Positions 5,956 to 28,887 of a stretch of DNA of 64,000 nt are shown piece after piece. Source of the stretch: an uncultured virus (IMG/VR IMGVR_UViG_3300050821_004861). Taxonomy: Duplodnaviria > Heunggongvirae > Uroviricota > Caudoviricetes. Numbering within the stretch: position 1 is the first letter of the stretch; the number at the start of each line of letters is the position of its first letter. Below the pieces are notes generated by a model. It was not told the DNA's origin and made no database searches. It saw nothing but the letters and a program-made list of their open reading frames with translations. Location of the stretch: the IMG/VR virus record IMGVR_UViG_3300050821_004861. One strand, 5' to 3'. The translations under genes were made by a program, and so were the position numbers.

Positions 5956-6978
5956 CTATGGTTTAACGTGTACGTGGCGACTGATAACCTCTCCTGAGCC
6001 GCGCCAGAAAGGCTGCACGATCCAATGTTTATCGCCGCGTCTGTTGAGATATGAGCCTACCATATGTATGCGTGGACTCTTTCGAGTATATCCAAGCGGC
6101 ATACCTTGTTGATGCATACGAGTTTCTTGGCTAATATGCATGGTAACTATGGTATGGTCTAATCTCTGAGCTTTATTCATTCTTCTGCGTATTCTATTGA
6201 GTGGAGACATATCGACATGCTCCAACTCTACAATTTTTCTGGAAGATGTCAGTAACATTAGACACGACCATATCATAATATATTCGCCATACACATCTGC
6301 ATAGAAGTTGGCTATTTGAGCATCTTGGCTATTTCCATTAAGCCTAAGCCGATAATGAGGAGGTAGCTCCAAAAACTTTGCTCCCCATTCAGATGGTTTA
6401 TGGTATGATGTATCCCAAATGCTAAGGAGCGCGTCTAGTTGGATTTTATTATCTTTCCAGATATTAGCTAAATTAGCATCCAAAAAACTCTTAACAAAAC
6501 TTGGACTTGTGATTTTACTGTAATCAAAATCTAGGTCGAAGAAAGCAGATATTGGACCAACGTTTGGTGGCTCGCCCTTCTTGATAAAATGATTACTCCA
6601 TACCCAAGTAACCATTCCTTTTCTACCAAACTCATCTGTCTCTAGTAGAAAACCCAAACGAGTTGGTAATGGACGATTAGGATACTCATAAGCATCTATT
6701 GAGAATGTTGTTCTCAATTTCTCTCGTCCCGCTTCTGGCCATTCTATCCACATCTTAGTATATGGTATTCTAAGATGAGCCATGGCTTCTCGAAGCACCT
6801 TGGGGCGCCCCAGAGTAAGTTCCACTGCTGTGTGGATAGTTGCGTCGTCAAACAGGAAGCGAGGACATCCTTTCAATTTTTCTTCCAATATTGGGAAGAT
6901 ACTTATGACAGGATGGCTAAGAAGCCTTCTTCTCTTAGCTTCATGAACTGTTTCTGTTATGTGATCCATGAGGTACAT
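5956..6978 (-). CDS. conserved phage hypothetical protein (C-terminal SPRxHxV...W..PFWRG motif)
   Basis: 340 aa ORF with a C-terminal motif recalled from a widespread uncharacterised phage family. Confidence 0.7.
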   Translation of the reverse strand: MYLMDHITETVHEAKRRRLLSHPVISIFPILEEKLKGCPRFLFDDATIHTAVELTLGRPKVLREAMAHLRIPYTKMWIEWPEAGREKLRTTFSIDAYEYPNRPLPTRLGFLLETDEFGRKGMVTWVWSNHFIKKGEPPNVGPISAFFDLDFDYSKITSPSFVKSFLDANLANIWKDNKIQLDALLSIWDTSYHKPSEWGAKFLELPPHYRLRLNGNSQDAQIANFYADVYGEYIMIWSCLMLLTSSRKIVELEHVDMSPLNRIRRRMNKAQRLDHTIVTMHISQETRMHQQGMPLGYTRKSPRIHMVGSYLNRRGDKHWIVQPFWRGSGEVISRHVHVKP

Positions 6979-6999
6979 GACATTTTAAATCCTAGTTGG

Positions 7000-7056
7000 G
7001 GCTAAATTGCCTAAAAGGGCCGCCAGGTACTCATTACAAATCCTGGCGGCAAGTCT
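7000..7056 (-). ncRNA. two-hairpin intergenic motif, copy 1
   Basis: Minus strand AGACTT-[GCCGCCAGG..CCTGGCGGC]-CCTTTTA-[GGC AATTTA GCC]; matches the copies at 10534 and 10879. Confidence 0.45.
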
Positions 7057-7109
7057 ACACCTGGCCCGCGATGGTCCGGGGGGCGAACAACCCGACCAGG
7101 TGATCTCAA

Positions 7110-7307
7110 TTAATCTTCGTCAATTGGCTCGTCGTGCCAATAATCCGGGTCAGTAAGAACGTCTGGTCTATACCGAGACATTTTTTCGTCGTGACATTTG
7201 TCACAAGTGTAGCACAAGAAAATGCCACGAGCATCTTGGTTAGCTGAGCGTTCTAAGCCACTACCGCATGGGCAGTCTTTGAGACGCATCTCATGTGGCC
7301 AATTCAT
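7110..7307 (-). CDS. SEC-C-like zinc-binding small protein
   Basis: CPCGSG plus CYTCDKC. Confidence 0.6.
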   Translation of the reverse strand: MNWPHEMRLKDCPCGSGLERSANQDARGIFLCYTCDKCHDEKMSRYRPDVLTDPDYWHDEPIDED

Positions 7308-7474
7308 TTGAACAACCTCTCTTTGAGCTCTACAGCTTTTTCCATCCGTTTTGATCTAATTTTTGATGGTTTTTCGTGGTATTCTTCTGTTACCATCGCA
7401 ATATAGATCATAAGAGCATGATGTAACATTTCATATTCGTATGTCTTCATATGTAGTGTTTTCATTTTTGCCAT
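7304..7474 (-). CDS. hypothetical protein (start MAKMK)
   Basis: AGGAG RBS. Confidence 0.5.
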   Translation of the reverse strand: MAKMKTLHMKTYEYEMLHHALMIYIAMVTEEYHEKPSKIRSKRMEKAVELKERLFK

Positions 7475-7541
7475 TTTCTTCTCCTGGTTAAAACCGCTCC
7501 CACACGGAAGCATGGGAGCGGCCATAGACTACGCCATTACG

Positions 7542-7679
7542 CTACGCAACTTCTGGTTGATCTTCCGTCCCTTTTGGCGGAACCGGTTCAGCTTCTGCTT
7601 CTTTTGGAGGAGCTTCTGCTTCTTTTGGAGCTTCTACTACCGGCTCTTCAGCTTTGGTATGCTCTTCTGGGTCACCCAT
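7542..7679 (-). CDS. small acidic E/P/A-rich protein (not in ORF track): MGDPEEHTKAEEPVVEAPKEAEAPPKEAEAEPVPPKGTEDQPEVA
   Basis: AAGGAGG RBS directly after hammerhead 1; open frame to TAG. Confidence 0.55.
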   Translation of the reverse strand: MGDPEEHTKAEEPVVEAPKEAEAPPKEAEAEPVPPKGTEDQPEVA

Positions 7680-7703
7680 ACGAGTCCCTCCTTGGTTGCT
7701 GAC

Positions 7704-7768
7704 GATCTCATCAGGTGCTGCCTAACAGCACGACTTGGAACGCCTTTGTGGCGCCCCAAGTTTCGATC
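7704..7768 (-). ncRNA. type II hammerhead ribozyme HH1 (GUC site, cut 7732/7731)
   Basis: GAUC GAAA CUUGGGGCGC-CACAAAG-GCGUUCCAAG UC GUGCUG-UUAGG-CAGCAC CUGAUGA GAUC. Confidence 0.93.
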
Positions 7769-7769
7769 T

Positions 7770-8357
7770 TTATTTCAGTAGCTTTCTGCCGCCACTCTGT
7801 ATAATGGTGCGTAGTCTGTCATTACGCAACTTGATTCTATCTGCTTCTTCATCCGAAGCAGCCAATGCTTGCAAAGCATCTTCGTCAGAAAAGACGTTAG
7901 CTTCTGTATGAGTTACAAGGAACTCAAGATTTCTATCATTAAGCCTGTTAGCTTTATCCACATTACGTAAATAATGTGCTTGATAAATAAGATCACGTTC
8001 TCCGATATGAAAATAAATTCCGTATATTGGATGTCCTGAACTTGTGAGAAATCTCTTGGCTTGATCTATAGATTTGGGCTTAATACAACCATTAATATAA
8101 AAAATTGCGTTAATTGATATCGGTCTAATACCATACATTCTATGTATGGTAGATGGAACATCCGGTAAGCGATGGAGAACGTATTGAAGACTACTAATCT
8201 CTAATCCATCATAAGAGTAATATTTTTGACCTGGTATTTTGTCAAGTTCTCTGGCTATATCCTTTGCATTTGGCCAATTGTTACCATTTTGATGCATAAC
8301 ATATGCGATTTTGCCGAGTCTCTCAAGCCATTTTCGCATTTCATTACTTGCGTTCAT
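7770..8357 (-). CDS. hypothetical protein
   Basis: 195 aa ORF with an AGGTAGC RBS. Confidence 0.65.
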   Translation of the reverse strand: MNASNEMRKWLERLGKIAYVMHQNGNNWPNAKDIARELDKIPGQKYYSYDGLEISSLQYVLHRLPDVPSTIHRMYGIRPISINAIFYINGCIKPKSIDQAKRFLTSSGHPIYGIYFHIGERDLIYQAHYLRNVDKANRLNDRNLEFLVTHTEANVFSDEDALQALAASDEEADRIKLRNDRLRTIIQSGGRKLLK

Positions 8358-8375
8358 TTTGCTACCTTTCTGAAC

Positions 8376-9245
8376 CTAGTTTAGATTATCTGGATTTGCG
8401 AGCCTCATATTATCAAAATCAGGAGTGTGCTCTTTCTCCTTGAGTTTTTCTGCACATTCAATAAAATGTGCTCCCAATGTTCTCAGAACCTGTGCTAATT
8501 TGTGACGTGAATAAATATTTAGATTGTCAGAATTTAGCATTATTTGATCTAATTTTTCTTTATCTCTTTCCAAATGACGAGCAAAATCAACAGTAAATGG
8601 AACAATATGTTTTACTGATGCTTCACTCTTCAATTCCTTCTTAAGGAATGGATCTAAGTCTGACTCATCTACTCTCTTATTGAACTCTATTCTTTCTTGT
8701 TTGAGTCTTTCTTTCTCAGCACGATTAGCTTCGCGCTCTTTTATGATTTCTACTTTGGCTTCTTCCTTGACTTGTTTTTGATCAATTTTATCCTTTTGAA
8801 TTCCAATATGTTCCTCAAATTTTTCTTCCGGCATTTTTGCCAATTTTTGCATTTGAGCAGACAAATATTTATCAACTCCTAAATCAGCTAGTTTCGGAAT
8901 TACAGAAATTGGCGGTGTCGGTTGCGGATTTTGCGAAGTCGCGTCCGGCGACTTCGGAATTTCCGCAACTATTTCGGCCACTTTCGGTTTTTCAACAACC
9001 TTTCTGTTTTCTTCTTTTTGGTGTCTTTTCCCTTCTTCCTTCAACTGTATTAACAACTCACCTCCCTTTCTTTCAGCACGCATCCTTATTTCCAATGCTT
9101 GCTTTTCCATTACGAAGTTTTTTGAAACTCTAGCATATTCCTGAATGGCAATGTGCTTATCACGAATATCCTTAATTTCGTCAACTCTGTACGCTTCAGC
9201 AACCGCTCTACAAGCGGCCTCATATTTTATAAGTTCTTGTATCAT
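8376..9245 (-). CDS. helical/coiled-coil phage protein (YEAACRA...VDE.KDIRDK...RAER..GELL N-domain)
   Basis: N-terminal domain recalled as often fused to phage methyltransferases, but no MTase motifs seen here. Start MIQEL after an AGGA RBS. Confidence 0.65.
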   Translation of the reverse strand: MIQELIKYEAACRAVAEAYRVDEIKDIRDKHIAIQEYARVSKNFVMEKQALEIRMRAERKGGELLIQLKEEGKRHQKEENRKVVEKPKVAEIVAEIPKSPDATSQNPQPTPPISVIPKLADLGVDKYLSAQMQKLAKMPEEKFEEHIGIQKDKIDQKQVKEEAKVEIIKEREANRAEKERLKQERIEFNKRVDESDLDPFLKKELKSEASVKHIVPFTVDFARHLERDKEKLDQIMLNSDNLNIYSRHKLAQVLRTLGAHFIECAEKLKEKEHTPDFDNMRLANPDNLN

Positions 9246-9263
9246 TTTACAATTTCCTATTTT

Positions 9264-9320
9264 GATCTCATCAGGTTGCGCCACACGCAACGACGGCCAA
9301 TCGCACTGGCCGTTTCGATC
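9264..9320 (-). ncRNA. type II hammerhead ribozyme HH2 (GUC site, cut 9292/9291)
   Basis: GAUC GAAA CGGCCA-GUGCGAU-UGGCCG UC GUUGCG-UGUGG-CGCAAC CUGAUGA GAUC. Confidence 0.94.
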
Positions 9321-9554
9321 TCAATATATTTCTTGCCCTTCAATGCATGGTGCATATTCATATGGCATATTAAGATGTTTGCATTTACCGTGATTGGTAA
9401 ATCCTGGGCAATTACAACTGTCACCTATGGTAGAAAGAACAACTTCATAAGTTTCCTTTCCATCTTTAAGAATACAGTAGCAATCGCCATAAACGCGATC
9501 ACCTCGATATTCATCGAGAAGTTTGTGGCCGTTTCGTTTTACTTGATATACCAT
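9321..9554 (-). CDS. SWIM zinc-finger protein
   Basis: SCNCPGF...CKHL; GGAGGTAGC RBS. Confidence 0.65.
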   Translation of the reverse strand: MVYQVKRNGHKLLDEYRGDRVYGDCYCILKDGKETYEVVLSTIGDSCNCPGFTNHGKCKHLNMPYEYAPCIEGQEIY

Positions 9555-9738
9555 TGCTACCTCCTTGACGATAACCAGTACGCACCACACGCGTGGCCGT
9601 TATGCTGGGTGGAACATTATTATTGAAGTCCTGCAAATAGTTGTATCGAAAATCATCAGTAGATTTCTTTACCATTTGCTCCAAATAGACTTCTACTCTG
9701 GACTTCCATAACTCAAATTCAGCTTGCTCTTGTATCAT
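9511..9738 (-). CDS. hypothetical protein (start MIQEQ)
   Basis: AGGT RBS; packed in the operon. Confidence 0.45.
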   Translation of the reverse strand: MIQEQAEFELWKSRVEVYLEQMVKKSTDDFRYNYLQDFNNNVPPSITATRVVRTGYRQGGSNGISSKTKRPQTSR

Positions 9739-9745
9739 TAGGCAC

Positions 9746-9994
9746 CTATCTTGTTTTGGGGAAATTCTTGGCAACCCAAACTTCACATTCCTCCTTTGCA
9801 TTGAGGTTAGAACAATCATCTATGGTGCGCCACTCACCGCTACCGCTTTTGTAAATGGCACGTTCAGGAGCACCGTCCTCGATGGCTCTTTCAATTTCAC
9901 CGTCGATATAATACTGGAAAGAACCAAGACGGTATCCCCATGCAACGATGAATGGATACTTCTTTCTGTTTTCTTTTTGCTGATTAAGTTTCAT
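9746..9994 (-). CDS. hypothetical protein (start MKLNQ)
   Basis: AGGAG RBS. Confidence 0.55.
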   Translation of the reverse strand: MKLNQQKENRKKYPFIVAWGYRLGSFQYYIDGEIERAIEDGAPERAIYKSGSGEWRTIDDCSNLNAKEECEVWVAKNFPKTR

Positions 9995-9995
9995 T

Positions 9996-10220
9996 CTATG
10001 ACTCCTTAGTAAAATGGGCAACGATTGTTTCCCAGTCACCGCAATATTGAATTGGCAACTTTTTGCCGCCAACTACGATTACCTGGTAAAAACCGCCAAT
10101 ACCAATGATTTCTTGTTCATTGGCTTCTGGCCCACGGTTTAGATAAGTCCATCCGTCATTTTCTTCGCGACGAATGAGCTTGTTTCCTCTGGAATATACC
10201 CAAACGTCAGATGCACTCAT
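9996..10220 (-). CDS. hypothetical protein (start MSASD)
   Basis: GGAG RBS; ATGA overlap with the upstream stop. Confidence 0.55.
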   Translation of the reverse strand: MSASDVWVYSRGNKLIRREENDGWTYLNRGPEANEQEIIGIGGFYQVIVVGGKKLPIQYCGDWETIVAHFTKES

Positions 10221-10516
10221 CCGAATCTCCAATCGCCTGCGCCACAATAGCTTTCAAAATCGCCGTTCTCACGAGCAGCGAGGCGGCGATCTTCAGCATG
10301 TTGCGCCAATTCTTCGAGGCGCGCTGCTTTCAACACACGCTTTCCAGAACAAGCGGCACATGTGATATCATATGTGCCATTCCTGTAGTCTTCAGCGAAG
10401 TCTGGATCTTCATCGAAGTCCTCGCGAGTCAATCCATTACAATCTATATTTGGATTGACTGTCGTTCCCTCCCCATCGCAAACTGGGCAGAGAATCCATG
10501 GGTCGCTCTTTGTCAT
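10217..10516 (-). CDS. DnaJ-like CxxCxGxG zinc-finger protein
   Basis: CPVCDGEG ... CAACSGKR. Confidence 0.65.
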   Translation of the reverse strand: MTKSDPWILCPVCDGEGTTVNPNIDCNGLTREDFDEDPDFAEDYRNGTYDITCAACSGKRVLKAARLEELAQHAEDRRLAARENGDFESYCGAGDWRFG

Positions 10517-10533
10517 TATACACATCCTTAGTT

Positions 10534-10577
10534 GGCAAAATTGCCTAAAAGTGGGGGCAAAGCCCCCAAAGTTCAAT
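10534..10577 (-). ncRNA. two-hairpin intergenic motif, copy 2
   Basis: ATTGAACTTT-[GGGGGC TTT GCCCCC]-ACTTTTA-[GGC AATTTT GCC]. Confidence 0.5.
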
Positions 10578-10860
10578 TTGTTTGGTCAGGAATAAAAACT
10601 AATGATTCCAAACGATTTTTTATATGGTCAATAAATAGATTATAAACTTCAATTTCTGTTATTGAAACATTATCTGCTATTGCCATTTCCATATATTCTT
10701 TTATATTTGTGGCACATACAATAGCTAATGCCTCAAATATAACATCAGAAGGCTGTCCGCCAATAATCCTTCTCATCTTATTACAGATATTTTGGATTTT
10801 TGCTCCCTTTTTGGGATCAACCTTTCCGCCTACTTTTATTTCATTTATGCTATTTGACAT
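10573..10860 (-). CDS. hypothetical protein (start MSNSI)
   Basis: AGGAG RBS. Confidence 0.6.
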   Translation of the reverse strand: MSNSINEIKVGGKVDPKKGAKIQNICNKMRRIIGGQPSDVIFEALAIVCATNIKEYMEMAIADNVSITEIEVYNLFIDHIKNRLESLVFIPDQTN

Positions 10861-10878
10861 TTTACTCTCCTGGTTAGC

Positions 10879-10929
10879 GGTCTTAAATGACCTAAAAGTG
10901 GGGCGCACTGCTGCGCCCCAAAGTTCAAT
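10879..10929 (-). ncRNA. two-hairpin intergenic motif, copy 3
   Basis: ATTGAACTTT-[GGGGCGCA GCAG TGCGCCCC]-ACTTTTA-[GGTC ATTTAA GACC]. Confidence 0.5.
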
Positions 10930-10932
10930 TAC

Positions 10933-11154
10933 TTACTGATTAAGATAGTCTGGACCATTGCCCTCGTACTGCTGGATAATGAGCATTTGAGCACGAGTTG
11001 GAGTGCATGTGCAATGTGAATCATCACAAGCACGCTTGTAGGCTGCATGATTGTCTCTCTTCCACTGAGAGATCTTTTCGGCCCTTGTCTTTGGCCTCTC
11101 AACAGTAGTGACAGTACCGTCTTCAAAAGTAGACATTTTATCAACTTTTGTCAT
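10933..11154 (-). CDS. hypothetical protein (start MTKVD)
   Basis: AGGAGGTAGC RBS directly after HH3. Confidence 0.6.
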   Translation of the reverse strand: MTKVDKMSTFEDGTVTTVERPKTRAEKISQWKRDNHAAYKRACDDSHCTCTPTRAQMLIIQQYEGNGPDYLNQ

Positions 11155-11170
11155 GCTACCTCCTATTACT

Positions 11171-11235
11171 GATCTCATCAGGCAGGGAGAAACCCTGCGA
11201 CTATGGGCGCTTAGTGGCGCCACATAGTTTCGATC
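11171..11235 (-). ncRNA. type II hammerhead ribozyme HH3 (GUC site, cut 11199/11198)
   Basis: GAUC GAAA CUAUG(U)GGCGC-CACUAA-GCGCCCAUAG UC GCAGGG-UUUCU-CCCUGC CUGAUGA GAUC. Confidence 0.93.
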
Positions 11236-11571
11236 TTAACTGCCAGTATGAAGTTGAAGAACACCATTCTCTAATTCATAGAAATCTTCTATGAAAACGT
11301 GGTGCTCATCGCCACTTTCCTGTATGGCTTTATCTGCTGCTTTCCACAGATCAAGCCAAGTTGGACCTTCAATCTTAACTGAAGATGCCTTACCCCACTG
11401 CATATCAGCAGGATACGAAACTTCAGTAGCGCCAACATAAGGGTGATTAAAACTCATATTTATAAAATCATTATCTGCTGATATTGACCAATATGATTTT
11501 GTTATTCCGTTTTTCTTGCCAATTGCTAAGTAGCAATCAAACGGATCTTGCTCAGATACTAACCTTATCAT
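11236..11571 (-). CDS. hypothetical protein (TWLDLWKAAD...HHVFIEDF type)
   Basis: AAGGA RBS; start MIRLV. Confidence 0.6.
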   Translation of the reverse strand: MIRLVSEQDPFDCYLAIGKKNGITKSYWSISADNDFINMSFNHPYVGATEVSYPADMQWGKASSVKIEGPTWLDLWKAADKAIQESGDEHHVFIEDFYELENGVLQLHTGS

Positions 11572-11582
11572 CTCTGTTATCC

Positions 11583-11840
11583 TTACGAACAGTTTGGGTT
11601 GTCTTGCTCTGGGGTGAGCGGCCAAGATTGTGTATCAGCAACTACGCCAATACCTTTCTCAACCTGCATTTGGATTGCCATTGCAAGTTGGGTAACACTA
11701 TAGTCGCCACTGGTAGCCTCAACTGTAAATTGGCGAACTACCTCGTCACCTTGTACGAATGGCGCTGTACCATTCTCGTAGATGGTAGAGATTTGAACTA
11801 CCACCTTTACTGCTTCAGCATCGCGTTTTACAAATGACAT
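11583..11840 (-). CDS. hypothetical protein
   Basis: Its RBS (GAGGAG) lies inside the HH4 core. Confidence 0.6.
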   Translation of the reverse strand: MSFVKRDAEAVKVVVQISTIYENGTAPFVQGDEVVRQFTVEATSGDYSVTQLAMAIQMQVEKGIGVVADTQSWPLTPEQDNPNCS

Positions 11841-11843
11841 TTT

Positions 11844-11903
11844 GATCTCCTCAGGCAGCGCCTTACGCTGCGACTGGGCGCATCACTGCGGCCAGTTTCG
11901 ATC
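11844..11903 (-). ncRNA. type II hammerhead ribozyme HH4 (GUC site, cut 11872/11871)
   Basis: GAUC GAAA CUGG(C)CGCA-GUGA-UGCG(C)CCAG UC GCAGCG-UAAGG-CGCUGC CUGAGGA GAUC. Confidence 0.92.
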
Positions 11904-11904
11904 T

Positions 11905-12144
11905 TTATTTTTTATCAGCAATCTTCACTACGTTTGCCAATGCTCTTGCGTGAAGCTTATCTTCGATGGTTTGAGCAGCTACTGTCAATATCTTTGCTCG
12001 CACATCGAGATCAGATAATTGTCCTGGCTTCATCTTCGGCGGAGGATTATCCAAAACAAAGTCTATTTTTTTGACTGTTGTTCTAATTGTGGAAGCCACC
12101 TCCTGTGCTTGGGCTATTTCAAACTCAATAGTAACCTTTTCCAT
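11905..12144 (-). CDS. hypothetical protein (start MEKVT)
   Basis: AAGGAGGTAGC RBS. Confidence 0.6.
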   Translation of the reverse strand: MEKVTIEFEIAQAQEVASTIRTTVKKIDFVLDNPPPKMKPGQLSDLDVRAKILTVAAQTIEDKLHARALANVVKIADKK

Positions 12145-12154
12145 TGCTACCTCC

Positions 12155-12316
12155 TTAACTCCACTGCCCATCTTCTTTGCCTTCAACATAGGCAGCATCT
12201 ACCATCTTCTCAATGGTAGCACACAGTTCCTTGAGTTTCTCTTCTGAGATTTCAAGAATGGCTTTGACAGCCTCAGCTATCAGATTAGCCCTACTTCCTT
12301 CTATTTCCATTAACAT
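12155..12316 (-). CDS. hypothetical protein (start MLMEI)
   Basis: AGGTGA RBS after HH5. Confidence 0.5.
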   Translation of the reverse strand: MLMEIEGSRANLIAEAVKAILEISEEKLKELCATIEKMVDAAYVEGKEDGQWS

Positions 12317-12341
12317 TTTTATCACCTGGCTGTTTGTTGCT

Positions 12342-12404
12342 GACCTCGTCAGACGCTGCATTACAGCGTGACTGGAGAGCCTTTTGGGCGCTCCAGTTTC
12401 GGTC
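12342..12404 (-). ncRNA. type II hammerhead ribozyme HH5 (GUC site, cut 12370/12369)
   Basis: GACC GAAA CUGGAG-CGCCCAAAAGGCU-CUCCAG UC ACGCUG-UAAUG-CAGCGU CUGACGA GGUC. Confidence 0.93.
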
Positions 12405-12695
12405 TTAATAACCCATTAAATCGAGCAGGTTAAGTTGATGTTTGGTAGCTGTTCCGCACTCACGAGCATCGAAAGCAGCGCCCACTGACTCTTCCATACG
12501 AAGAGTCCAATTATCTGGACGTGTCTCTATGGTGAGGCGATTACCCCAATCGGAATAATATGAAATACCAACGGCGAATTCTCTCTCAACTCCGCCTACC
12601 ATGCTGAGAACTCTCTCGCGAGCCTTCTCAAGTGTAGGATAAAGTGAAAGATGACGTCCGTCAGGTGCGCTATTGATAACCAGATATTTTGCCAT
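12405..12695 (-). CDS. hypothetical protein (start MAKYL)
   Basis: AGGAG RBS after HH6. Confidence 0.6.
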   Translation of the reverse strand: MAKYLVINSAPDGRHLSLYPTLEKARERVLSMVGGVEREFAVGISYYSDWGNRLTIETRPDNWTLRMEESVGAAFDARECGTATKHQLNLLDLMGY

Positions 12696-12714
12696 TCTAC
12701 AACTCCTAGTTACT

Positions 12715-12777
12715 GATCTCATCAGGCAACGCCTTACGTTGCGATTGGAACGCTTTGTGGGCGCTCCAATTTCGATC
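12715..12777 (-). ncRNA. type II hammerhead ribozyme HH6 (AUC site, cut 12743/12742)
   Basis: GAUC GAAA UUGGAGCGC-CCACAAA-GCGUUCCAA UC GCAACG-UAAGG-CGUUGC CUGAUGA GAUC. Confidence 0.93.
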
Positions 12778-12778
12778 T

Positions 12779-13126
12779 TCAGTAGCAATTTCTGAGCATT
12801 GCTTCGTCAGCCTCGATGCACTCCATAATGCTCTCACGCTCCGCTCTGGAATACTTACGCATGGAGCGCTCAAACAGCATATTTGGAATCGCTTCAGCTC
12901 TGCGAACTGAAAGTCCAGTTAATTCTTCAAATATCAGAGCCGGATCTATTCCACAAGAGTTTTGAGCATCGTAATGTCTATCGCCAGTTTTAACCCATTC
13001 GCCTAATCCGCTATGGATTGTGACTGGATTACGCGTTGTATCAGTAAAGTAGAATGTAATCTCCGTAAATGAATACGGATCGTGCTTTGGACCTTCAGAA
13101 CCGCGTCTAACTCTAATCTTTGCCAT
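12779..13126 (-). CDS. hypothetical protein
   Basis: AGGAG RBS after HH7. Confidence 0.6.
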   Translation of the reverse strand: MAKIRVRRGSEGPKHDPYSFTEITFYFTDTTRNPVTIHSGLGEWVKTGDRHYDAQNSCGIDPALIFEELTGLSVRRAEAIPNMLFERSMRKYSRAERESIMECIEADEAMLRNCY

Positions 13127-13146
13127 TTTAACAACTCCTGGTTACT

Positions 13147-13207
13147 GACCTCGTCAGCTAGCGCCCAACGCTAGGACTGGTGGGCTTGTGGCGCACCAGT
13201 TTCGGTC
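13147..13207 (-). ncRNA. type II hammerhead ribozyme HH7 (GUC site, cut 13175/13174)
   Basis: GACC GAAA CUGGUG-CGCCACAAGCC-CACCAG UC CUAGCG-UUGGG-CGCUAG CUGACGA GGUC. Confidence 0.93.
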
Positions 13208-13543
13208 TTAGTGCTCCAAAACTCTGTTTCTGCGATTAATCCACTGCTCTTTGACTGCTCGACCTGTAACTGAGCCTTCAGTGTATTCGCAGATATCCAA
13301 GAACTCGACGCGCCCATCCGAATAGATGGCAAGCCAATCGTCGCAGTCAGGATGCTCGTATTCGTCGTATGATTCGCTGAATTCAGAATTCCTTCCTTCA
13401 TACGAATATCCTTCAGCAAGGAGATTGTGATGAATATCTTCGTTATACAGGACTGAATTGTCCAATTTTACCTCCTTTATCAAGCCGGATAGTTCCTTCA
13501 TTATTTCTGTGAAATCATCGAGAGATTTTTCTAGTCTACTCAT
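13208..13543 (-). CDS. acidic hypothetical protein (start MSRLE)
   Basis: AGGAG RBS. Confidence 0.6.
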   Translation of the reverse strand: MSRLEKSLDDFTEIMKELSGLIKEVKLDNSVLYNEDIHHNLLAEGYSYEGRNSEFSESYDEYEHPDCDDWLAIYSDGRVEFLDICEYTEGSVTGRAVKEQWINRRNRVLEH

Positions 13544-13719
13544 TTTACTTCTCCTGTTTCGTGGTGAATTGCATAGGTGCAACTGAAACTTTCTGCTTTT
13601 TGCTACGATTGGCATGTCCAGTTGCAACGCTGACAAACAATCGCTGTAGTGGCGGCATTTTTGGCTGTTTTCTGAAAATGCTCCTATCTTTGAGTTTTGA
13701 CTTGTCCATAACGCTACTC

Positions 13720-14133
13720 CTACTTCTTACGCCAAGAAGCTTCCTCAGCTTCTTTCTTCCGAGCCTTGATTCGGCTCTGATAATCAGCAAAAGTTGTTCC
13801 TGTGACAGAACCGTAATCTCCGATGGAATCACCCTTTGCTATTTTGCTCTCAGATCGCGGAAAGTACCGCTTTCCAGGAGGATTGTTCTTAACATATTTG
13901 ATTTCGATCTTGCCTGACGCAAATGTTTTAACTCTTTTCTTGATTACACTGTAATCCTGATCTATTTCCAATTCCTCACTAGGCTTTTCGCCTGGATCTT
14001 TTAATTTGCTGAAATCAACTATAAACGTCTTACGAACAGGGGTGATATTCATATTCGTATGCCCTGATCTTCCAGCATCTATAGGATTTGCTTTCATTTG
14101 CCTTAGTCTTGCGCGTGCTTTCGATGACATCAT
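13720..14133 (-). CDS. basic hypothetical protein, first gene of the leftward array
   Basis: AGGAG RBS preceded by a long hairpin at 14150-14202. Confidence 0.6.
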   Translation of the reverse strand: MMSSKARARLRQMKANPIDAGRSGHTNMNITPVRKTFIVDFSKLKDPGEKPSEELEIDQDYSVIKKRVKTFASGKIEIKYVKNNPPGKRYFPRSESKIAKGDSIGDYGSVTGTTFADYQSRIKARKKEAEEASWRKK

Positions 14134-14465
14134 ACTCTCCTAGTTAGAAATAGCACAATTGAGCACAGCACCCTTTTCAGGGCACTGTGCTCTGTTTTGC
14201 TATCTCAGGCGGATATTTCCTTCCGCCTAAACGACGCAACTGGCCGGTTTTTCTCCCTGGAACTTTTCGCCCTTCGGGGAGAGACTGCCTGGCACCAACT
14301 ACTTAACCGCTCGGCTCGTCATTTTGCCGGGTTTATTTCGCTATTCGGCTTTGTGGCCTGCGCCGCGGTTTTCTCCGCGGGGAAAATGGATGAAATCAAC
14401 TCCTTTAAGGGGCGGGAACCGCCCCGAGAAAAAACCCTAGCACGTTCCGGGCAGGAAAGCAAGGG

Positions 14466-14491
14466 GAACGTATCGGGAACAGTACGGGAAC
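14466..14491. promoter_or_regulatory. tandem GAAC-N7-GAAC-N7-GAAC (alphaproteobacterial LexA/SOS-box-like)
   Basis: GAAC gtatcgg GAAC agtacgg GAAC. Confidence 0.45.
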
Positions 14492-14629
14492 AAAAAGGGA
14501 AAATACCATGATTTTGCTGATATATCAGTACTTTCAAAAGTTGATGTCATCCACATTTCAACCATTGATTGATGAATAGTTCAGGGGCACTCGCACTGGA
14601 GCGCTCCAGCAGGGCTTGATGAGCCCCAC

Positions 14630-14652
14630 TGTCTAGGTGTCTAGCTGTCTAG
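14630..14652. repeat. 3x TGTCTAG tandem repeat (8-bp period); inverted copy at 16421-16435
   Basis: TGTCTAGCTGTCTAG (14638-14652) is the exact reverse complement of CTAGACAGCTAGACA (16421-16435). Confidence 0.8.
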
Positions 14653-14677
14653 CGGCGTTTTCGTTTTTTATCGCGTT

Positions 14678-16150
14678 TTATCTAGTCCTGAAGATCCAGT
14701 TAACCTGCTCTGGATCCCAAGTGTTCTTTCCTTCCAGAAGAACATCCATTAGCTCGCGACACACTCTCAACGACGGGATTATATACACGTATGGCCTCAC
14801 TCCCGTCTTTGTGACAGGCGCTCTACCATCTCGCACAATAGTAACTCTGGAGCCATTACTGTGCTTTTGGACTTTACCATCTATTACCTGCGGTATTAAC
14901 TGAACGAATGCTTTTCCAAAAGCGGTCTCGTTCAATTTCGTCCTGTCGCGCACCCATCGAGACTTGCAGAAGTCAATATAAAGAAGTTCCTTGAGAACTC
15001 TGCAATTCTCACCATCGAGAATACCTTGAGGAAGCTCACCCGTTGTTAAGTTATTGAGCCACCATTCCTCTACACCAGACATACTTTGTTGCTTCTGATG
15101 CAGTAGCTCTTCAGTTACGGGTATCCTTCTCAAGTCCACCGAGCTATAGTCATAATTTAGGAAGTAGTGCAAGAGTGCTGTATTCATACCATTCTCGTAC
15201 TCTTCGTTCAGCTTCCCGAAATACTCAGTATCCTTGCGATGCGTTGAACTCACATACAGCGCATAAACGCGACGCGCGCTAAATGAGGCGGATACTAACC
15301 ACTTCGGATTACCTGTAATGAACACATGCAAATAGTTTTGCATCAACATCACAGGCACATGCTTCTCATTCACGGATATTTTCTCGCCCGTTATGAGATC
15401 TTTCAACATCTGTTCGTCTCTGCTATTCCCAGACCATCTAGCTTCCTCAATATGCAGAATCAACTTATTCCGCAACTGAGAGTTAAACGATCCGAAAATA
15501 TGATGCAGATTAGAGGATTTGAAGTAGTAGCTCTTTATCAGTTCGCAAATCTTCTCAACAAAGAAAGACTTGCCAACACCTTCTTCACCTCTAAGAACAA
15601 CTGCAACTCCAGGTCTATCCTCTGGCTCCTGGAACATTTGCGCCAGAAGCGCAACCAAGTACGTGAAGTGTTCGTCGTTCCCAGAACAGATTACCTCTCT
15701 CATAAAATCTAAGAAAGGTTGAACATTACCAGCAACCGGCTGGATATCATATCCTTCCCACAGATTATAGATCCAATCTGGGAGAGGTTCCTCTTGAGGC
15801 TTTACTATCTTGAATACCACTTTATTATAGAAGCGCCTCATTCGAGATAGAAACCAGAGTTTTCCGACATTCACACGCTTTTCTTTGCCCTTGTCATCTT
15901 CGACAAGGATTGTCATATTCGCGTGCTGAGACATAAAATCCGATTTCTTCATCCAGCTCTTTGAGCCATCTTCTTTTATGTGCAGTATTCTAGCCTGCTC
16001 ACTCTCACTTACTAGAACATGAGCATAGAACGTATTCATATTACGCACTACCTCATCTTCTGCTACTCCCCAACCATTCTTCTGGAAGAAGATCTCTGGT
16101 TGCCGGGTAAACTTTATGAGTCTACCCATTTTCTCTATTTCTTTGTCCAT
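14678..16150 (-). CDS. primase-associated P-loop helicase/ATPase (DUF5906/D5-like), paralog 1
   Basis: YNLWEG motif, Walker A GEEGVGKS, FNSQL..KL...EE, LKDLIT...INEK. Confidence 0.8.
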   Translation of the reverse strand: MDKEIEKMGRLIKFTRQPEIFFQKNGWGVAEDEVVRNMNTFYAHVLVSESEQARILHIKEDGSKSWMKKSDFMSQHANMTILVEDDKGKEKRVNVGKLWFLSRMRRFYNKVVFKIVKPQEEPLPDWIYNLWEGYDIQPVAGNVQPFLDFMREVICSGNDEHFTYLVALLAQMFQEPEDRPGVAVVLRGEEGVGKSFFVEKICELIKSYYFKSSNLHHIFGSFNSQLRNKLILHIEEARWSGNSRDEQMLKDLITGEKISVNEKHVPVMLMQNYLHVFITGNPKWLVSASFSARRVYALYVSSTHRKDTEYFGKLNEEYENGMNTALLHYFLNYDYSSVDLRRIPVTEELLHQKQQSMSGVEEWWLNNLTTGELPQGILDGENCRVLKELLYIDFCKSRWVRDRTKLNETAFGKAFVQLIPQVIDGKVQKHSNGSRVTIVRDGRAPVTKTGVRPYVYIIPSLRVCRELMDVLLEGKNTWDPEQVNWIFRTR

Positions 16151-16484: not shown

Positions 16485-17129
16485 TTAGACTGCCTTAACC
16501 ACTCGATCTTTGAGTTCAAGTTCAGCAATCTTCTTTTCCAACTCAGGCAGTGGCATATCAGCAATATTCTCATCTTCTGACTTAGTGATGAGTGTAGTGC
16601 TGTCACCCCATTTACCAGGTCGCCCAGCTTTGAGATGCCTGAAGCGCACCTCAACTCTCAATTTGGCACGAGCAATCACATCAGCATCTTGCACTTTAAT
16701 AGTTTTACCAGATTTAATAATTTCTTTCATATCACGTGCTGCATCATCAGCAATTGATATCACTTCTTCTTCAAATATAGTCAGTCTGTCAGCAATAGCC
16801 ATATTATACAGCGCTTGGAAATCAGCTTCTGTCTTCAGCCATGCTGAACAGCGGCGCACAGTTGGCATGTGTGAGTCTTTACAAATGTTGATCAATAGCT
16901 CACCAGCACTGATCCTCTCACAAATCTCTGTCGCCAACTCTTCAGTGTAATCTATTTGATCCTTAATCTTCTGATTTTCTTTGTACAATTCACGATCAAT
17001 AGCGTCTTGTTTAGCTTTACGTTGGCGCTCAATCTCAGCATCCAGCTTCTGCTGTTTCTTGAGGCGCTCATAATCTTCTTCCCACATCACCGTGGGACCA
17101 GGATCAATGTTATGGATTGGATCAGTCAT
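16485..17129 (-). CDS. terS: terminase small subunit-like protein (Sf6/P22-type HTH)
   Basis: YTEELATEICERI..GE.L..IC....MP....W....F...Y..A...IADD...AKLRV pattern. Confidence 0.7.
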   Translation of the reverse strand: MTDPIHNIDPGPTVMWEEDYERLKKQQKLDAEIERQRKAKQDAIDRELYKENQKIKDQIDYTEELATEICERISAGELLINICKDSHMPTVRRCSAWLKTEADFQALYNMAIADRLTIFEEEVISIADDAARDMKEIIKSGKTIKVQDADVIARAKLRVEVRFRHLKAGRPGKWGDSTTLITKSEDENIADMPLPELEKKIAELELKDRVVKAV

Positions 17130-17920: not shown

Positions 17921-19405
17921 ATGTCTGATGAAGAAGATCTCAAAGCACGTGAGAATATTACACGTTTGGACGAAACTCCTGAGTTCCAGAAAAATCAAAC
18001 AAATCAAACAAGACCAGAATATAAGAGAACTGGCGATCCCAAGAAGGATGCCATATTAGAATTAAATCAAGATCATTTTACCACATATTTAAATGGGCGC
18101 TTCAAAGTAGTCAGAGAGAATCCAGATGGCACATTAGAAATAATGGATAAAAAAGATTTAGTTGCTGGTTATTCAGATAGACGCATTATGATAGTGCCAG
18201 CAGAGGGTGGTGATCCAAAATATGTTCAAATTACAGAGGTATGGTTTGCCAGCCCTGAGCGGCGCCACTTTAAATACGGATTTGATTTTGATCCATCATA
18301 TTTGGGTAATAGAAATGATAAATACAATTTATTCAAAGGATATAAAATCAAAGCAATTGCTGGAGATTGTTCACAATTTATAGATTTGATGAGAAATATT
18401 ATTTGTTCTGGAAATGAAACTAATTTTGATTATCTAGTAGCGCTCATTGCACAAATGTTCCAAGAACCACAATTAAAACCAGGTATAGCTGTGGTAATAC
18501 GTGGAGATGAGGGCGTAGGCAAATCATTCTTTGTTGAGCGTCTATCTGAAATGATGCGCCCATATTGTTTTAAAACATCAAATCCACAATACATATTTGG
18601 CGATCACAATGGCCAATTAAAGAACACAATCATACTTCATTTAGAGGAAGCGGTTTGGGCTGGAAGCAAGAAAGATGAATCATTACTAAAAGATATCATA
18701 ACTGGCCCAACGTTACCTATCAATGACAAATATGTGCCAGTATATAGCGTACCAAATCATCTTCACCTGTTCATAACTGGAAATCCAGAATGGCTCGTCA
18801 GCGCTGGATTCAAAGCCAGACGTATATTCGCACTCCATGCATCAGAAGATAAGAGACGTGATACCAAATACTTTGCTGAGCTCGACACATGGTTCCACAA
18901 CGGTGGCGCTGAGGCGCTCATGTATTATTTTATGAATCACAAATACGATGTTGATCTCAGAATAGCGCCAGTTACAGAAGAATTGATATTCCAAAAACAA
19001 CAGAGTATGAGTGGCGTACAAGAATGGCTATATTCTATTGTCAACTCAAAAGAAATGCCTTATGGTGAATTAATAGATGGGAAAGTGTCAGTAATTAAAG
19101 CGTTGTTGTTAAATGATTATAATCACTCTCCATCTGGGCAGCGCCACAAACTAAGTGATCGCAAATTTGGTAATCAATTGGTAGATTTGGTACCCTCAAT
19201 GGTGGTGGAGAATATCAAAATCAAAGATAGTCGTGATGTAAGGAGAAATGGATATATAGTACCGCCACTGGTAGATATCAGAAGGTCATTGGAAACAAAA
19301 CTGGGTGGTAATGTTTTATGGTCAACAGAGGATGGTGAATGGTCAGTACTTAAAGGAAATACTGATTTTGATTTCAGTCTCTATAAGCCAGATAGAGAAT
19401 TCTAA
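17921..19405 (+). CDS. primase-associated P-loop helicase/ATPase (DUF5906/D5-like), paralog 2
   Basis: FDP..YNLFKG, Walker A GDEGVGKS. Clearly homologous to 14678..16150 (shared LVAL.AQMFQEP, LH.FITGNP.WLVSA, QKQQSMSGV.EW). Confidence 0.8.
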   Translation: MSDEEDLKARENITRLDETPEFQKNQTNQTRPEYKRTGDPKKDAILELNQDHFTTYLNGRFKVVRENPDGTLEIMDKKDLVAGYSDRRIMIVPAEGGDPKYVQITEVWFASPERRHFKYGFDFDPSYLGNRNDKYNLFKGYKIKAIAGDCSQFIDLMRNIICSGNETNFDYLVALIAQMFQEPQLKPGIAVVIRGDEGVGKSFFVERLSEMMRPYCFKTSNPQYIFGDHNGQLKNTIILHLEEAVWAGSKKDESLLKDIITGPTLPINDKYVPVYSVPNHLHLFITGNPEWLVSAGFKARRIFALHASEDKRRDTKYFAELDTWFHNGGAEALMYYFMNHKYDVDLRIAPVTEELIFQKQQSMSGVQEWLYSIVNSKEMPYGELIDGKVSVIKALLLNDYNHSPSGQRHKLSDRKFGNQLVDLVPSMVVENIKIKDSRDVRRNGYIVPPLVDIRRSLETKLGGNVLWSTEDGEWSVLKGNTDFDFSLYKPDREF

Positions 19406-19431: not shown

Positions 19432-19664
19432 GTCCGGTTTCTGAAAAACCGTAACGGGACAGGCTAAGTCCTTGTTATTGCAGGGTTTTTCGGCCACCAT
19501 TGATCAGTCCTGTTATGGGTGGGAAAGAGGTATGAAAAAGACGCCTCGCATATGAAAATGGTAACAGGACAAACAGGACTAACAGGACTGGTCGCCGTAA
19601 CCTGTTGTAATCGTTGCGCTTTTTATGTCCTATTATATATGAAAAATAACAGGACTAACAGGAC
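19432..19664. repeat. iteron-like AACAGGAC cluster (putative replication origin)
   Basis: Direct copies at 19563, 19572, 19581, 19648 and 19657; inverted GTCCTGTT at 19507; variants at 19432, 19453 and 19627. Confidence 0.6.
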
Positions 19665-19768: not shown

Positions 19769-19955
19769 CATCAGTAAACCATCAGTAAACCATCAGTAAT
19801 CAATTCAGTAATTGGTATCAACCATTGGGAAATCATATTGGTGGTCATCAGCCATTGATTGGGCGCCACCAAGGTCAAATATCAATCATCAACTTTTGAA
19901 TCAAATATTGGGATCAACCATTGGGAAATCAGTTTGACAATCATCAGCCATTGAT
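19769..19955. repeat. CCATCAGTAA x3; TCAACCATTGGGAAATCA x2; TCATCAGCCATTGAT x2
   Basis: Direct repeats read from non-coding DNA. Confidence 0.7.
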
Positions 19956-27378: not shown

Positions 27379-28887
27379 GTGTCTATGGGATTCGAGCCTC
27401 CACAGCAGCCATCCCAATTCGAGATTATACGCAAGCGCCAAATTCTTAAATACCGTTCTGAGGCTTGGCGTCGTTCTTGTCAGACTTCTTTATTGGCATG
27501 GTGTGAAGAGTGTGTACATGATTTTGGTTTTGAACCAGCAACGCACCATAGACATATTATCAAAGCCCTAAACAAAGTTATAAGTGGTGAAATAGATAGG
27601 TTAATGATATTTGCTCCTCCTGGGAGCGCCAAGTCTACTTATACATCTGAACTGTTACCGCCTTATTGGTTTAAGATATTTCCTCGTTCAAGTGTTATTG
27701 GGTGCTCACATACCGGAGAATTAGCTGAGCGCTTTGGTCGTAAAGTCAGAAATAGAATTCTTCTCAAAGCTCCGCTTTTAGGTTATTCACTTGACGAATC
27801 AAATAGAGCCGCTTCTCGTTGGGAAACTACAAACGGAGGTGAATATTACGCAGCGGGAGTGGGTGGCGCGATTACTGGCAGACGCGCTGATCTTGCAATT
27901 ATTGATGATCCAGTCAAGTCAAGAGAAGATGCTGAATCCGAAACCGTTCGGACGAAGACCTATGAATGGTATAAATCGGACTTGGTGACTCGTCTTAAGC
28001 CAGACGCTAGAATTATCCTTATCCAAACTAGATGGCATTTAGAAGATCTGGGAGGGATGTTGCTTCACGAGGCAGAAAAGGGTGGAGACCAATGGCACGT
28101 TATAAATCTCCCAGCCTTCGCGGTAGCTAATGATCCTTTGAAGCGCCAAGTAGGTGAAGCTCTCTGGCCAAAATGGGAAGATGCACAGGCACTTGAGAGA
28201 AAGCGAACGATCTTAGGGATGAGAGATTTTGAATCGCTTTATCAGCAAAATCCGCAGCCGCCTGGTGGTACGTTTTTCCTCGAAAAGGACTTACTTGTTG
28301 ACGGATCTCCTGTCAACTATCCTGAGTGGACTGATTGCGTCTTTGCCACTATTGATACTGGTATTAAGGCTGATGCGAAACACGATGCCACAGCCGTAAT
28401 ATATTGGGCACTGAACGAACGTTTTGAGGCGCCACTAACGATTTTAGATTATGATATAATCCAAGTTCCTGCTGATTTATTGATAGATTGGATGCCTAAT
28501 GTTTATATGAGACTTGAAGAATTTGCTAAAGTTTGTAGGTCACGCAGAGGTTCTATTGGCGCATTGATAGAAGAAAAAGGTTCTGGAATTGTCTTGCTCC
28601 AACAAGCGAACCGAAGAAACCAACTTGCCACGGGAATTGACGCAAAGCTTGTCCAACTCGGAAAACAGCCGAGAGCACTTAATGCTTCAGGCTACGTATC
28701 TGTTGGCAGAGTTAAGTATTCTGATTACGCTTATCGAAAAACAGTCGATTTCAAACAAAGACATGCAAATCATCTCATTAAGCAAGTTCATAGTTTCAAT
28801 GTTGGAGTCCCAGATCAAGAAGATGACTTGGTAGATTGTTTTTGTTATGGTGTATGCAGCGCACTAGGTAATTCTGATCTATGGTGA
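27379..28887 (+). CDS. terL: terminase large subunit
   Basis: APPGSAKS Walker A, ITGRRAD.AIIDDPVK, IQTRW..DL, LYQQ.P, nuclease D..DD.VD. Confidence 0.93.
   Translation: MSMGFEPPQQPSQFEIIRKRQILKYRSEAWRRSCQTSLLAWCEECVHDFGFEPATHHRHIIKALNKVISGEIDRLMIFAPPGSAKSTYTSELLPPYWFKIFPRSSVIGCSHTGELAERFGRKVRNRILLKAPLLGYSLDESNRAASRWETTNGGEYYAAGVGGAITGRRADLAIIDDPVKSREDAESETVRTKTYEWYKSDLVTRLKPDARIILIQTRWHLEDLGGMLLHEAEKGGDQWHVINLPAFAVANDPLKRQVGEALWPKWEDAQALERKRTILGMRDFESLYQQNPQPPGGTFFLEKDLLVDGSPVNYPEWTDCVFATIDTGIKADAKHDATAVIYWALNERFEAPLTILDYDIIQVPADLLIDWMPNVYMRLEEFAKVCRSRRGSIGALIEEKGSGIVLLQQANRRNQLATGIDAKLVQLGKQPRALNASGYVSVGRVKYSDYAYRKTVDFKQRHANHLIKQVHSFNVGVPDQEDDLVDCFCYGVCSALGNSDLW

Follow-up and report, generated by a model that had tools for sequence, protein, structure and literature searches.

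Clustered hammerhead ribozymes often flank one gene or a short gene block in prophages, and the processing of messages to gene length has been proposed as their role (Perreault et al. 2011, PMC3088659). According to that paper, three of the clustered arrangements cut efficiently in vitro and one set cut in Escherichia coli. In Desulfovibrio vulgaris, three type II hammerheads near phage-like genes are described as cutting in vivo on the evidence of cyPhyRNA-seq (PMC8782182), and a 2019 review (PMC6765202) repeats the processing idea and presents the purpose of bacterial and phage hammerheads as still undefined. Our literature search returned no paper establishing a function for phage hammerhead arrays beyond the 2011 proposal. 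Here we describe seven hammerhead elements (HH1 to HH7) in a 64-kb window, the whole stretch of DNA analysed, of an uncultured soil tailed phage (IMG/VR record IMGVR_UViG_3300050821_004861). All elements of the array are on the minus strand, and their sequences make it probable that they are catalytically competent and would self-cleave during the transcription of a leftward polycistronic RNA of early or accessory type, cutting it at seven sites.

The arrangement of the 2011 clusters is found again here, with seven copies on the gene strand among 22 same-strand genes of a phage genome. As those clusters are described in the text of the 2011 paper, they resemble the present array in following the orientation of the genes inside a polycistronic phage unit, in the variability of the flanked genes and in the proposed processing role. 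The present locus differs in holding seven elements in 5.5 kb, compared with the triplets tested there, in belonging to a free soil phage genome rather than to prophages of cultured hosts, and in being of a form that lacks the pseudoknot; moreover, cleavage was tested there, whereas here it is predicted from sequence. The D. vulgaris hammerheads, as PMC8782182 presents them, are likewise of type II and adjoin hypothetical or phage-like genes. However, they occupy three separate loci rather than an array, their cleavage in cells has been demonstrated, and the comparison is one of topology and gene context. An earlier, sequence-only reading of this DNA had remarked that such ribozymes were already reported in phages, and the 2011 paper had indeed both described and tested clusters of them. 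The array layout has been known in phages since then, and the present locus is a clean, large example rather than a new kind of system. What it adds are modest details, namely invisibility to Rfam, a U/A signature without a pseudoknot, a core that may act as a ribosome-binding site, exchange with a terminator-like element and a competing hairpin.

The sequence-only reading had placed seven hammerheads on the minus strand between positions 7704 and 13207, and pattern scans together with a structural descriptor recovered every one of them (Table 1). Each element is 57–65 nucleotides (nt) long and consists, in order, of a stem II strand, GAAA, the stem III hairpin, UC, the stem I hairpin, CUGANGA and the other stem II strand. 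The pattern CTGANGAGRYC matches the window seven times against 0.45 matches expected, a count reached in none of 100 shuffles. GRYCGAAA matches 12 times (6.2 expected) and the composite pattern CGAAA..TC..CTGANGA eight times (0.52 expected), and in both cases seven of the matches are the hammerhead elements. The eighth composite match (42397-42461, plus strand) is without stems, fails the structural descriptor and was rejected as a hammerhead. A covariance model built from the seven elements, here called R1, scores them at 65–89 bits; run unfiltered over both strands, it detected no further copy in the window, the next best match reaching 13.3 bits. Cut sites recomputed from the descriptor matches are identical to those predicted earlier, and the six intervening pieces come out at exactly the lengths then given, 432, 373, 498, 673, 1907 and 1560 nt.

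Table 1. Hammerhead elements, terminator-like hairpin elements and the gene run that contains them, listed in the direction of the minus strand within each kind. Gaps are the distances in nt from the upstream stop codon to the element and from the element to the next ATG; scores are those of the covariance model R1.
Feature	Position	Strand	Stem II	Core	Predicted cut (after C17)	Score (bits)	Stop gap	ATG gap	Remarks
HH7, type II hammerhead	13147..13207	minus	GACC/GGUC	CUGACGA	13175/13174	81.6	0	20	
HH6, type II hammerhead	12715..12777	minus	GAUC/GAUC	CUGAUGA	12743/12742	87.5	1	19	U15.2-A16.2; g6/g7 junction
HH5, type II hammerhead	12342..12404	minus	GACC/GGUC	CUGACGA	12370/12369	89.4	0	25	
HH4, type II hammerhead	11844..11903	minus	GAUC/GAUC	CUGAGGA	11872/11871	72.6	1	3	
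HH3, type II hammerhead	11171..11235	minus	GAUC/GAUC	CUGAUGA	11199/11198	76.1	0	16	
HH2, type II hammerhead	9264..9320	minus	GAUC/GAUC	CUGAUGA	9292/9291	65.2	0	18	short stem III
HH1, type II hammerhead	7704..7768	minus	GAUC/GAUC	CUGAUGA	7732/7731	76.4	1	24	12-bp stem III
Hairpin element, copy 1	10879..10930	minus							g12/g13 junction; AAUUGAACUUUGG, GC-rich hairpin, CUUUUAGG, small second hairpin
Hairpin element, copy 2	10534..10578	minus							g13/g14 junction
Hairpin element, copy 3	7000..7050	minus							g23/g24 junction; first hairpin different, then CUUUUAGGCAAUUUAGCC
Small-gene run	5956..14133	minus							about 22 genes (g3 to g24, 45–340 aa); contains all seven hammerheads

Judged by their sequences, the seven elements are genuine hammerhead motifs of type II topology, in which stems I and III are capped and stem II is open. 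The core strand C3-U4-G5-A6-N7-G8-A9 (CTGANGA) is present in all seven copies, N7 being U in four, C in two and G in one. GAAA is equally invariant, comprising G12-A13-A14 and the first base of the A15.1-U16.1 pair, which is A-U in 7/7, and the G10.1-C11.1 pair that closes stem II at the core is present throughout. Under the NUH rule the cleavage-site nucleotide of a hammerhead, H17, is not G; here it is C17 in every copy, within a GUC triplet in six and an AUC triplet in one. The latter belongs to HH6, which carries U15.2-A16.2 where the other copies have C-G. When each of the seven is folded alone, the minimum-energy structure is in every case the type II three-way junction, and the z-scores span -1.87 to -4.93. 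In the alignment of the seven, standard pairs occupy 99.1% of pair cells, compared with 20–43% in slid controls, and 9/17 pairs have changed on both sides in a compensatory manner; the covariation score was reached by none of 500 shuffles. Five copies have GAUC/GAUC as stem II and the other two have GACC/GGUC, while stem I is a 6-bp helix that differs in every copy and carries a 5-nt loop with U first. The earlier description of an invariant core (CUGANGA plus GAAA) with covarying stems is thereby borne out, as are its particulars: the two kinds of stem II, the ever-different stem I with its U-starting loop, and the compensated AUC of HH6. Every testable sequence-level feature that defines a hammerhead with an open stem II is present.

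The placement of the elements is as regular as their structure. All share the strand of the genes and fit tightly between a stop codon and the ribosome-binding site that follows, and the gaps measured for all seven agree with the earlier statement that each starts 0–1 nt past the upstream stop and ends 3–25 nt before an ATG. HH7, for example, directly abuts the g5 stop codon. In the case of HH4 (11844-11854; ATG 11840, minus strand), where N7 is G, the core and G10.1 together read GAGGAG, 6 nt before the start of g10, and this is the only Shine-Dalgarno-like sequence available to that gene. The CUGAGGA core was seen in only two copies, HH4 and one in another phage contig (L030), whose start codons follow 3 and 5 nt downstream, respectively. 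In both, the core itself appears to supply the ribosome-binding sequence.

In the mechanism that we propose, each hammerhead would fold as the RNA is made and cut after C17, splitting the message at seven points into the six pieces named above and two outer pieces. Each upstream piece would terminate in the stem III hairpin and a 2',3'-cyclic phosphate, and each downstream piece would start with a 5'-OH and the stem I hairpin, with a start codon 3–25 nt past the ribozyme. Because the products would be held together by the 4-bp stem II alone, they should separate. The likely outcome is a set of separate mRNAs that would be hairpin-capped on both sides and independent of the neighbouring cistrons in their stability and translation. 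Transcription across the region, cleavage in vivo and an effect on stability and expression are what we infer from this layout. General knowledge of bacterial RNA decay lies behind the idea that a 5'-OH and a hairpin protect a message from end-dependent decay and that cistrons can be insulated from one another. RiboJ, for instance, is a synthetic ribozyme insulator. Hammerheads in the 5' untranslated regions of RNA viruses are described as enabling translation (PMC13725137). Both are alike to the present elements in that a cut just upstream of an open reading frame removes the upstream context and leaves a 5'-OH hairpin leader; those ribozymes, however, are of type I or III or engineered and work in eukaryotic viruses or synthetic circuits, and no membership is implied.

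Several results weigh against this reading. At the gathering threshold, Rfam gave no match over the whole window. With the Rfam type II hammerhead model, the check proposed in the sequence-only reading, 0/7 elements reached the gathering threshold of 37 bits, and at E <= 10 over 7000-14000 only HH2 matched a hammerhead (RF02276, 25.3 bits against the gathering 37). The nine other Rfam rows obtained at that E value in the same interval are chance-level matches to unrelated families. When the elements are folded by nearest-neighbour methods with 40 or 80 nt of natural flank, stems I and III are kept (mean P 0.94–0.99) but the 4-bp stem II is not (mean P 0.00–0.41), and forcing it in that context costs 0.2–5.0 kcal/mol relative to a competing hairpin. 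The majority of type II hammerheads, as characterized by Perreault et al. (2011, PMC3088659), possess a pseudoknot of loop I with the 3' tail, defined here as at least 4 bp between loop I and the tail that follows stem II and present in most of the family, not all. This pseudoknot is absent: across 105 distinct copies the longest complementary run has a mean of 2.50 nt, and permuted pairs give 2.50 +/- 0.06 nt. Furthermore, cleavage is predicted to alter the accessibility of the ribosome-binding sites hardly at all (0.34–0.64 before, 0.43–0.68 after), and a promoter scan assigned no promoter to the operon (43 sites versus 28.8 expected).

The low Rfam scores reflect a limit of the Rfam model and not of the motifs; 33 hammerheads of the same form, found with R1 in 20 other phage loci, were likewise missed at the gathering threshold (0/33 detected). 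RF02276 (Hammerhead_II) and the present elements share the core, the permutation that leaves only stem II uncapped, and the G10.1-C11.1 pair. In contrast to the model, whose stem II has 2 bp, stem II is fixed here at 4 bp, the pseudoknot is absent, and the 3' tail is a conserved AGAAAC or AGUAAC. Beyond the window, R1 found 95 matches in 78 other IMG/VR loci. Among 80 distinct relatives, 98.9% of cells pair and 15/17 pairs are compensatory, in an alignment that is itself fitted to the model. A pattern scan of IMG/VR for copies with the GAUC stem returned at least 123 stretches; among the matches listed, 88 distinct copies, drawn from 68 loci that have no relation to the window, were examined at positions lying outside the search pattern. 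In this set an A precedes stem II and a U opens loop I in 88/88 copies, stem I has 6 bp and its loop 5 nt, and the tail after stem II reads A-G-A-A-A-C, with A at +1 in 82/88 and G at +2 in 55/88. The newness of this subfamily was judged against RF02276 and the text of the 2011 paper. The register with respect to genes also recurs in other phages, where the upstream open reading frame stops -1 to +6 nt from the element in 79/98 copies and, in 76/98, a Shine-Dalgarno sequence and its start codon lie downstream, the start at a median of 23 nt. One other contig holds five hammerheads in 5.1 kb. An unrelated phage contig with two hammerheads also contains a match to the Rfam transfer-messenger RNA family (L024:4208-4285, RF00023, 81.1 bits, above gathering), about 800 nt from the pair.

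Since stem II is weak in the context folds, the active fold must rely on tertiary contacts that folding models ignore. A pseudoknot between loop I and the 5' flank offers no such contact, its complementarity showing no enrichment over permuted pairs. A second candidate is the combination of U as the first nucleotide of loop I and A at -1 before stem II, both present in 7/7 copies in the window. Crystal structures and mutants reported by Dufour et al. (2009, PMC2632901) define a U/A contact in which the 5' U of loop 1 is joined to the 3' A of loop 2 as a reverse Hoogsteen pair. As those loop motifs are set out there, the invariant loop I U and A(-1) match the U/A contact, and tail position +1 corresponds to the 5' end of "loop 2". 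However, "loop 2" here is two free strands beside stem II, and the Y of the UNmYN motif is mostly absent. We infer that the two nucleotides may form the classical contact, with the free strands beside stem II replacing loop 2. In 4/7 copies, the upstream stop codon ends in A(-1).

The hairpin that competes with stem II suggests another possibility, which we regard as doubtful, namely that cleavage is regulated or one-way and not merely constitutive. The hairpin, CUGAY-GAG-RUCAG, would be built from the core together with the stem II strand and AG tail. It would represent either an off state, maintained until, for example, a ribosome passes the adjoining stop codon, or a trap after cleavage, making the cut irreversible and providing a second 5' hairpin. 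This hairpin is part of the minimum-energy fold with a 40-nt flank in 5/7 copies, with 5–6 bp, and the same pattern holds in the predicted 3' products. It is nevertheless short, with a predicted advantage of just 0.2–5 kcal/mol, and HH4, with 3 bp, and HH2, with none, lack the AG tail. Given the size of a ribosome footprint, a ribosome terminating at a stop codon that ends 0–1 nt before stem II would cover the upstream stem II strand. The frequencies of A and G at tail positions +1 and +2 in the other phages given above are in line with such a hairpin, but a purine at +1 is predicted equally well by the classical RNnA loop 2 motif as that is given in PMC2632901. In two scans that left N7 free, N7 was U in 58, C in 21, A in 2 and G in 1 of the copies with A10.2 (n=82), and C in 39, U in 32 and G in 1 of those with G10.2 (n=72), a Fisher odds ratio of 3.4 (p=0.0005) that is uncorrected for relatedness. 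This association suggests, but does not prove, a second conformation; the C found in 21/82 of the GAUC-type copies cannot pair with A10.2, and with C3 and U4 invariant the other pairs give no covariation test.

A broader version of this idea is improbable to a similar degree. Stem II and the AG tail might be a built-in two-state switch common to a large Rfam-invisible subfamily, in which the upstream strand would be needed before cleavage and the CUGAY-GAG-RUCAG hairpin would form beside stem I after it. Cleavage would then be coupled to upstream translation, the Hoogsteen contact would be made with the last base of the stop codon, and the ribozymes would double as exchange points for cassettes. 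If this switch exists, cutting would be irreversible and the downstream mRNAs would each gain a double-hairpin 5'-OH cap.

Comparison with related phages bears on the cassette aspect. Over 8512 nt the nearest record (G001) has 100% identity with the window and so adds no independent information, and a search for related loci with the primase returned only identical records. Four further IMG/VR records (G002 to G005) carry orthologues of g6, g7, g9, g14, g16, g17, g18, g23 and g24 at 31–79% identity, in shuffled order and with three hammerheads per record. In relatives with 55–78% protein identity, the hammerhead preceding the g6 orthologue is retained; its stem I is the same, its stem III is rebuilt, and the other hammerheads lie at different junctions. 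No DNA is better kept in the relatives than the ribozymes and hairpin elements, which form islands of 80–92% identity versus 68–80% for coding sequence. Genes specific to the window are found in hammerhead-bounded blocks, namely g10 and g11 between HH4 and HH3, and g19 and g20 between HH2 and HH1; none of the four had a tblastn match in the four relatives at E <= 1e-4. The reordered genes and bounded blocks lend support to the array of small-gene cassettes pictured in the sequence-only reading.

These comparisons could also be taken to mean that the elements act at the level of DNA, as conserved linkers of about 60 bp for cassette recombination or as selfish passengers, with RNA cleavage of little consequence. 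The same genes in another order with hammerheads at other junctions, and the window-specific blocks, would fit this, and so would the resemblance of HH4 (89.7% identity) and HH2 (84%) to two G003 hammerheads, both of which lie between other genes. HH4 and a G002 hammerhead, in addition, share an identical 24-nt stem III and differ in stem I, stem II and N7. However, a purely DNA-level role leaves unexplained the strict retention of every catalytic nucleotide, the covariation, the strand specificity and the fixed register between stop and start codons. We therefore consider it distinctly unlikely that a DNA-level role is the main function of the elements, although DNA exchange and RNA cleavage are compatible with each other.

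The array shares its region with a second intercistronic element, present in three copies (Table 1) and including a small second hairpin, GGCAAUUUUGCC. The same element is found at L133:11561-11625. It resembles a terminator that has a short run of U, and it has no Rfam match. In the relatives this element, reading AAUUGAACUUUGG, a GC-rich hairpin and CUUUUAGGCAAUUUUGCC, takes the g6/g7 junction that HH6 occupies in the window. Because of this exchange, hammerhead and terminator-like hairpin appear from their sequences to be interchangeable forms of intercistronic punctuation, which fits a role in defining mRNA ends as well as the cassette picture. A pattern for the hairpin element retrieved 68 stretches from IMG/VR, representing 53 distinct sequences, of which only five have a hairpin of at least 6 bp; four of these five trace back to the copy in this phage or to relatives, and the remaining matches outside this phage group look like chance.

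Terminator-like hairpins at equivalent junctions, the marginal stem II of the context folds and the want of any copy at the Rfam gathering score could all be accommodated if the elements were inactive relics or plain structural hairpins that terminate or stabilise transcripts and do not cleave themselves. This is very unlikely, as the unpaired core positions are invariant in 7/7 copies and A(-1) and the loop I U in 88/88 among the matches listed, nucleotides for which hairpins alone have no need, and comparable clustered motifs are reported to cut in vitro and in vivo (PMC3088659, PMC8782182). Scarcely credible is successive cleavage and ligation into circular or spliced gene-length RNAs by a shared stem II that rebuilds the hammerhead, which the palindromic GAUC/GAUC stem of 5/7 copies would allow and Perreault et al. 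(PMC3088659) raised as a possibility, since their paper reports a search for such products in which none was detected, 4 bp is a weak tether across 370–1900 nt, and the HH6-HH5 and HH5-HH4 pieces would pair imperfectly (GAUC with GACC, or GGUC with GAUC).

The array lies downstream of a gene for a primase-helicase of the DUF5906/VapE type (14678-16150, minus strand). The plus strand of the window encodes a large terminase, portal, baseplate hub and wedge, and tail fibres, in keeping with the phage context recognized earlier. Only 4/24 minus-strand proteins had any match in family scans at the thresholds used; a small-terminase-like protein and the primase matched, and both are encoded upstream of the array. 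The 18 genes g6 to g23 yielded a single significant family match, to a PHROG without known function, and the earlier description of the genes between the ribozymes as uncharacterised therefore stands. Weak hints were seen for g14 (10217-10516, minus strand), with a DnaJ-type CXXCXGXG zinc finger at 17.7 bits (below the cut-off of 32.7), and for g18 (9321-9554, minus strand), with a SWIM zinc finger at 18.7 bits (below the cut-off of 19.6). Both genes are conserved in the four related phages.

Upstream of the array, 545 nt between the primase gene and g3 (14134-14677) are without a minus-strand gene. This is the likeliest site for the operon promoter; no convincing sigma-70-type site was found there. 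The primase-helicase gene has a divergent paralogue on the plus strand (17921-19405); both match PHROG 1156/1829, and the minus-strand copy also matches Pfam DUF5906 and a VapE-like domain. Between the two, on the early strand, lies a small-terminase-like gene of Sf6 type (16485-17129, minus strand; PF20901, 81.9 bits), about 10 kb from the oppositely oriented large terminase gene (27379-28887, plus strand). A short way downstream of the second primase gene, that of the plus strand, iteron-like repeats at 19563-19664 and 19788-19955 consist of AACAGGACTAACAGGAC in three copies and two 72-nt direct repeats 96 nt apart with 75% identity, and may be a replication origin. A megablast search of the region against cultured phages gave no match. 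The best match of the large terminase (TerL) among cultured phages is below 32% identity, and no host can be named on that basis. The DNA of the window occurs in nine sequencing runs, all of soil metagenome DNA, and a look-up of RNA data sets containing it gave none.

Self-cleavage of the leftward message at seven points is the reading that we favour, and a compact operon of seven ribozymes with ends predicted to the nucleotide is a test bed for a role of phage hammerheads in the stability or translation of mRNA gene by gene. The invariant A(-1), the U at the first position of loop I (L1.1), the fixed stem II and the AG tail provide specific positions for mutants. Rfam annotation misses the whole subfamily, and counts of phage ribozymes based on Rfam are consequently underestimates.

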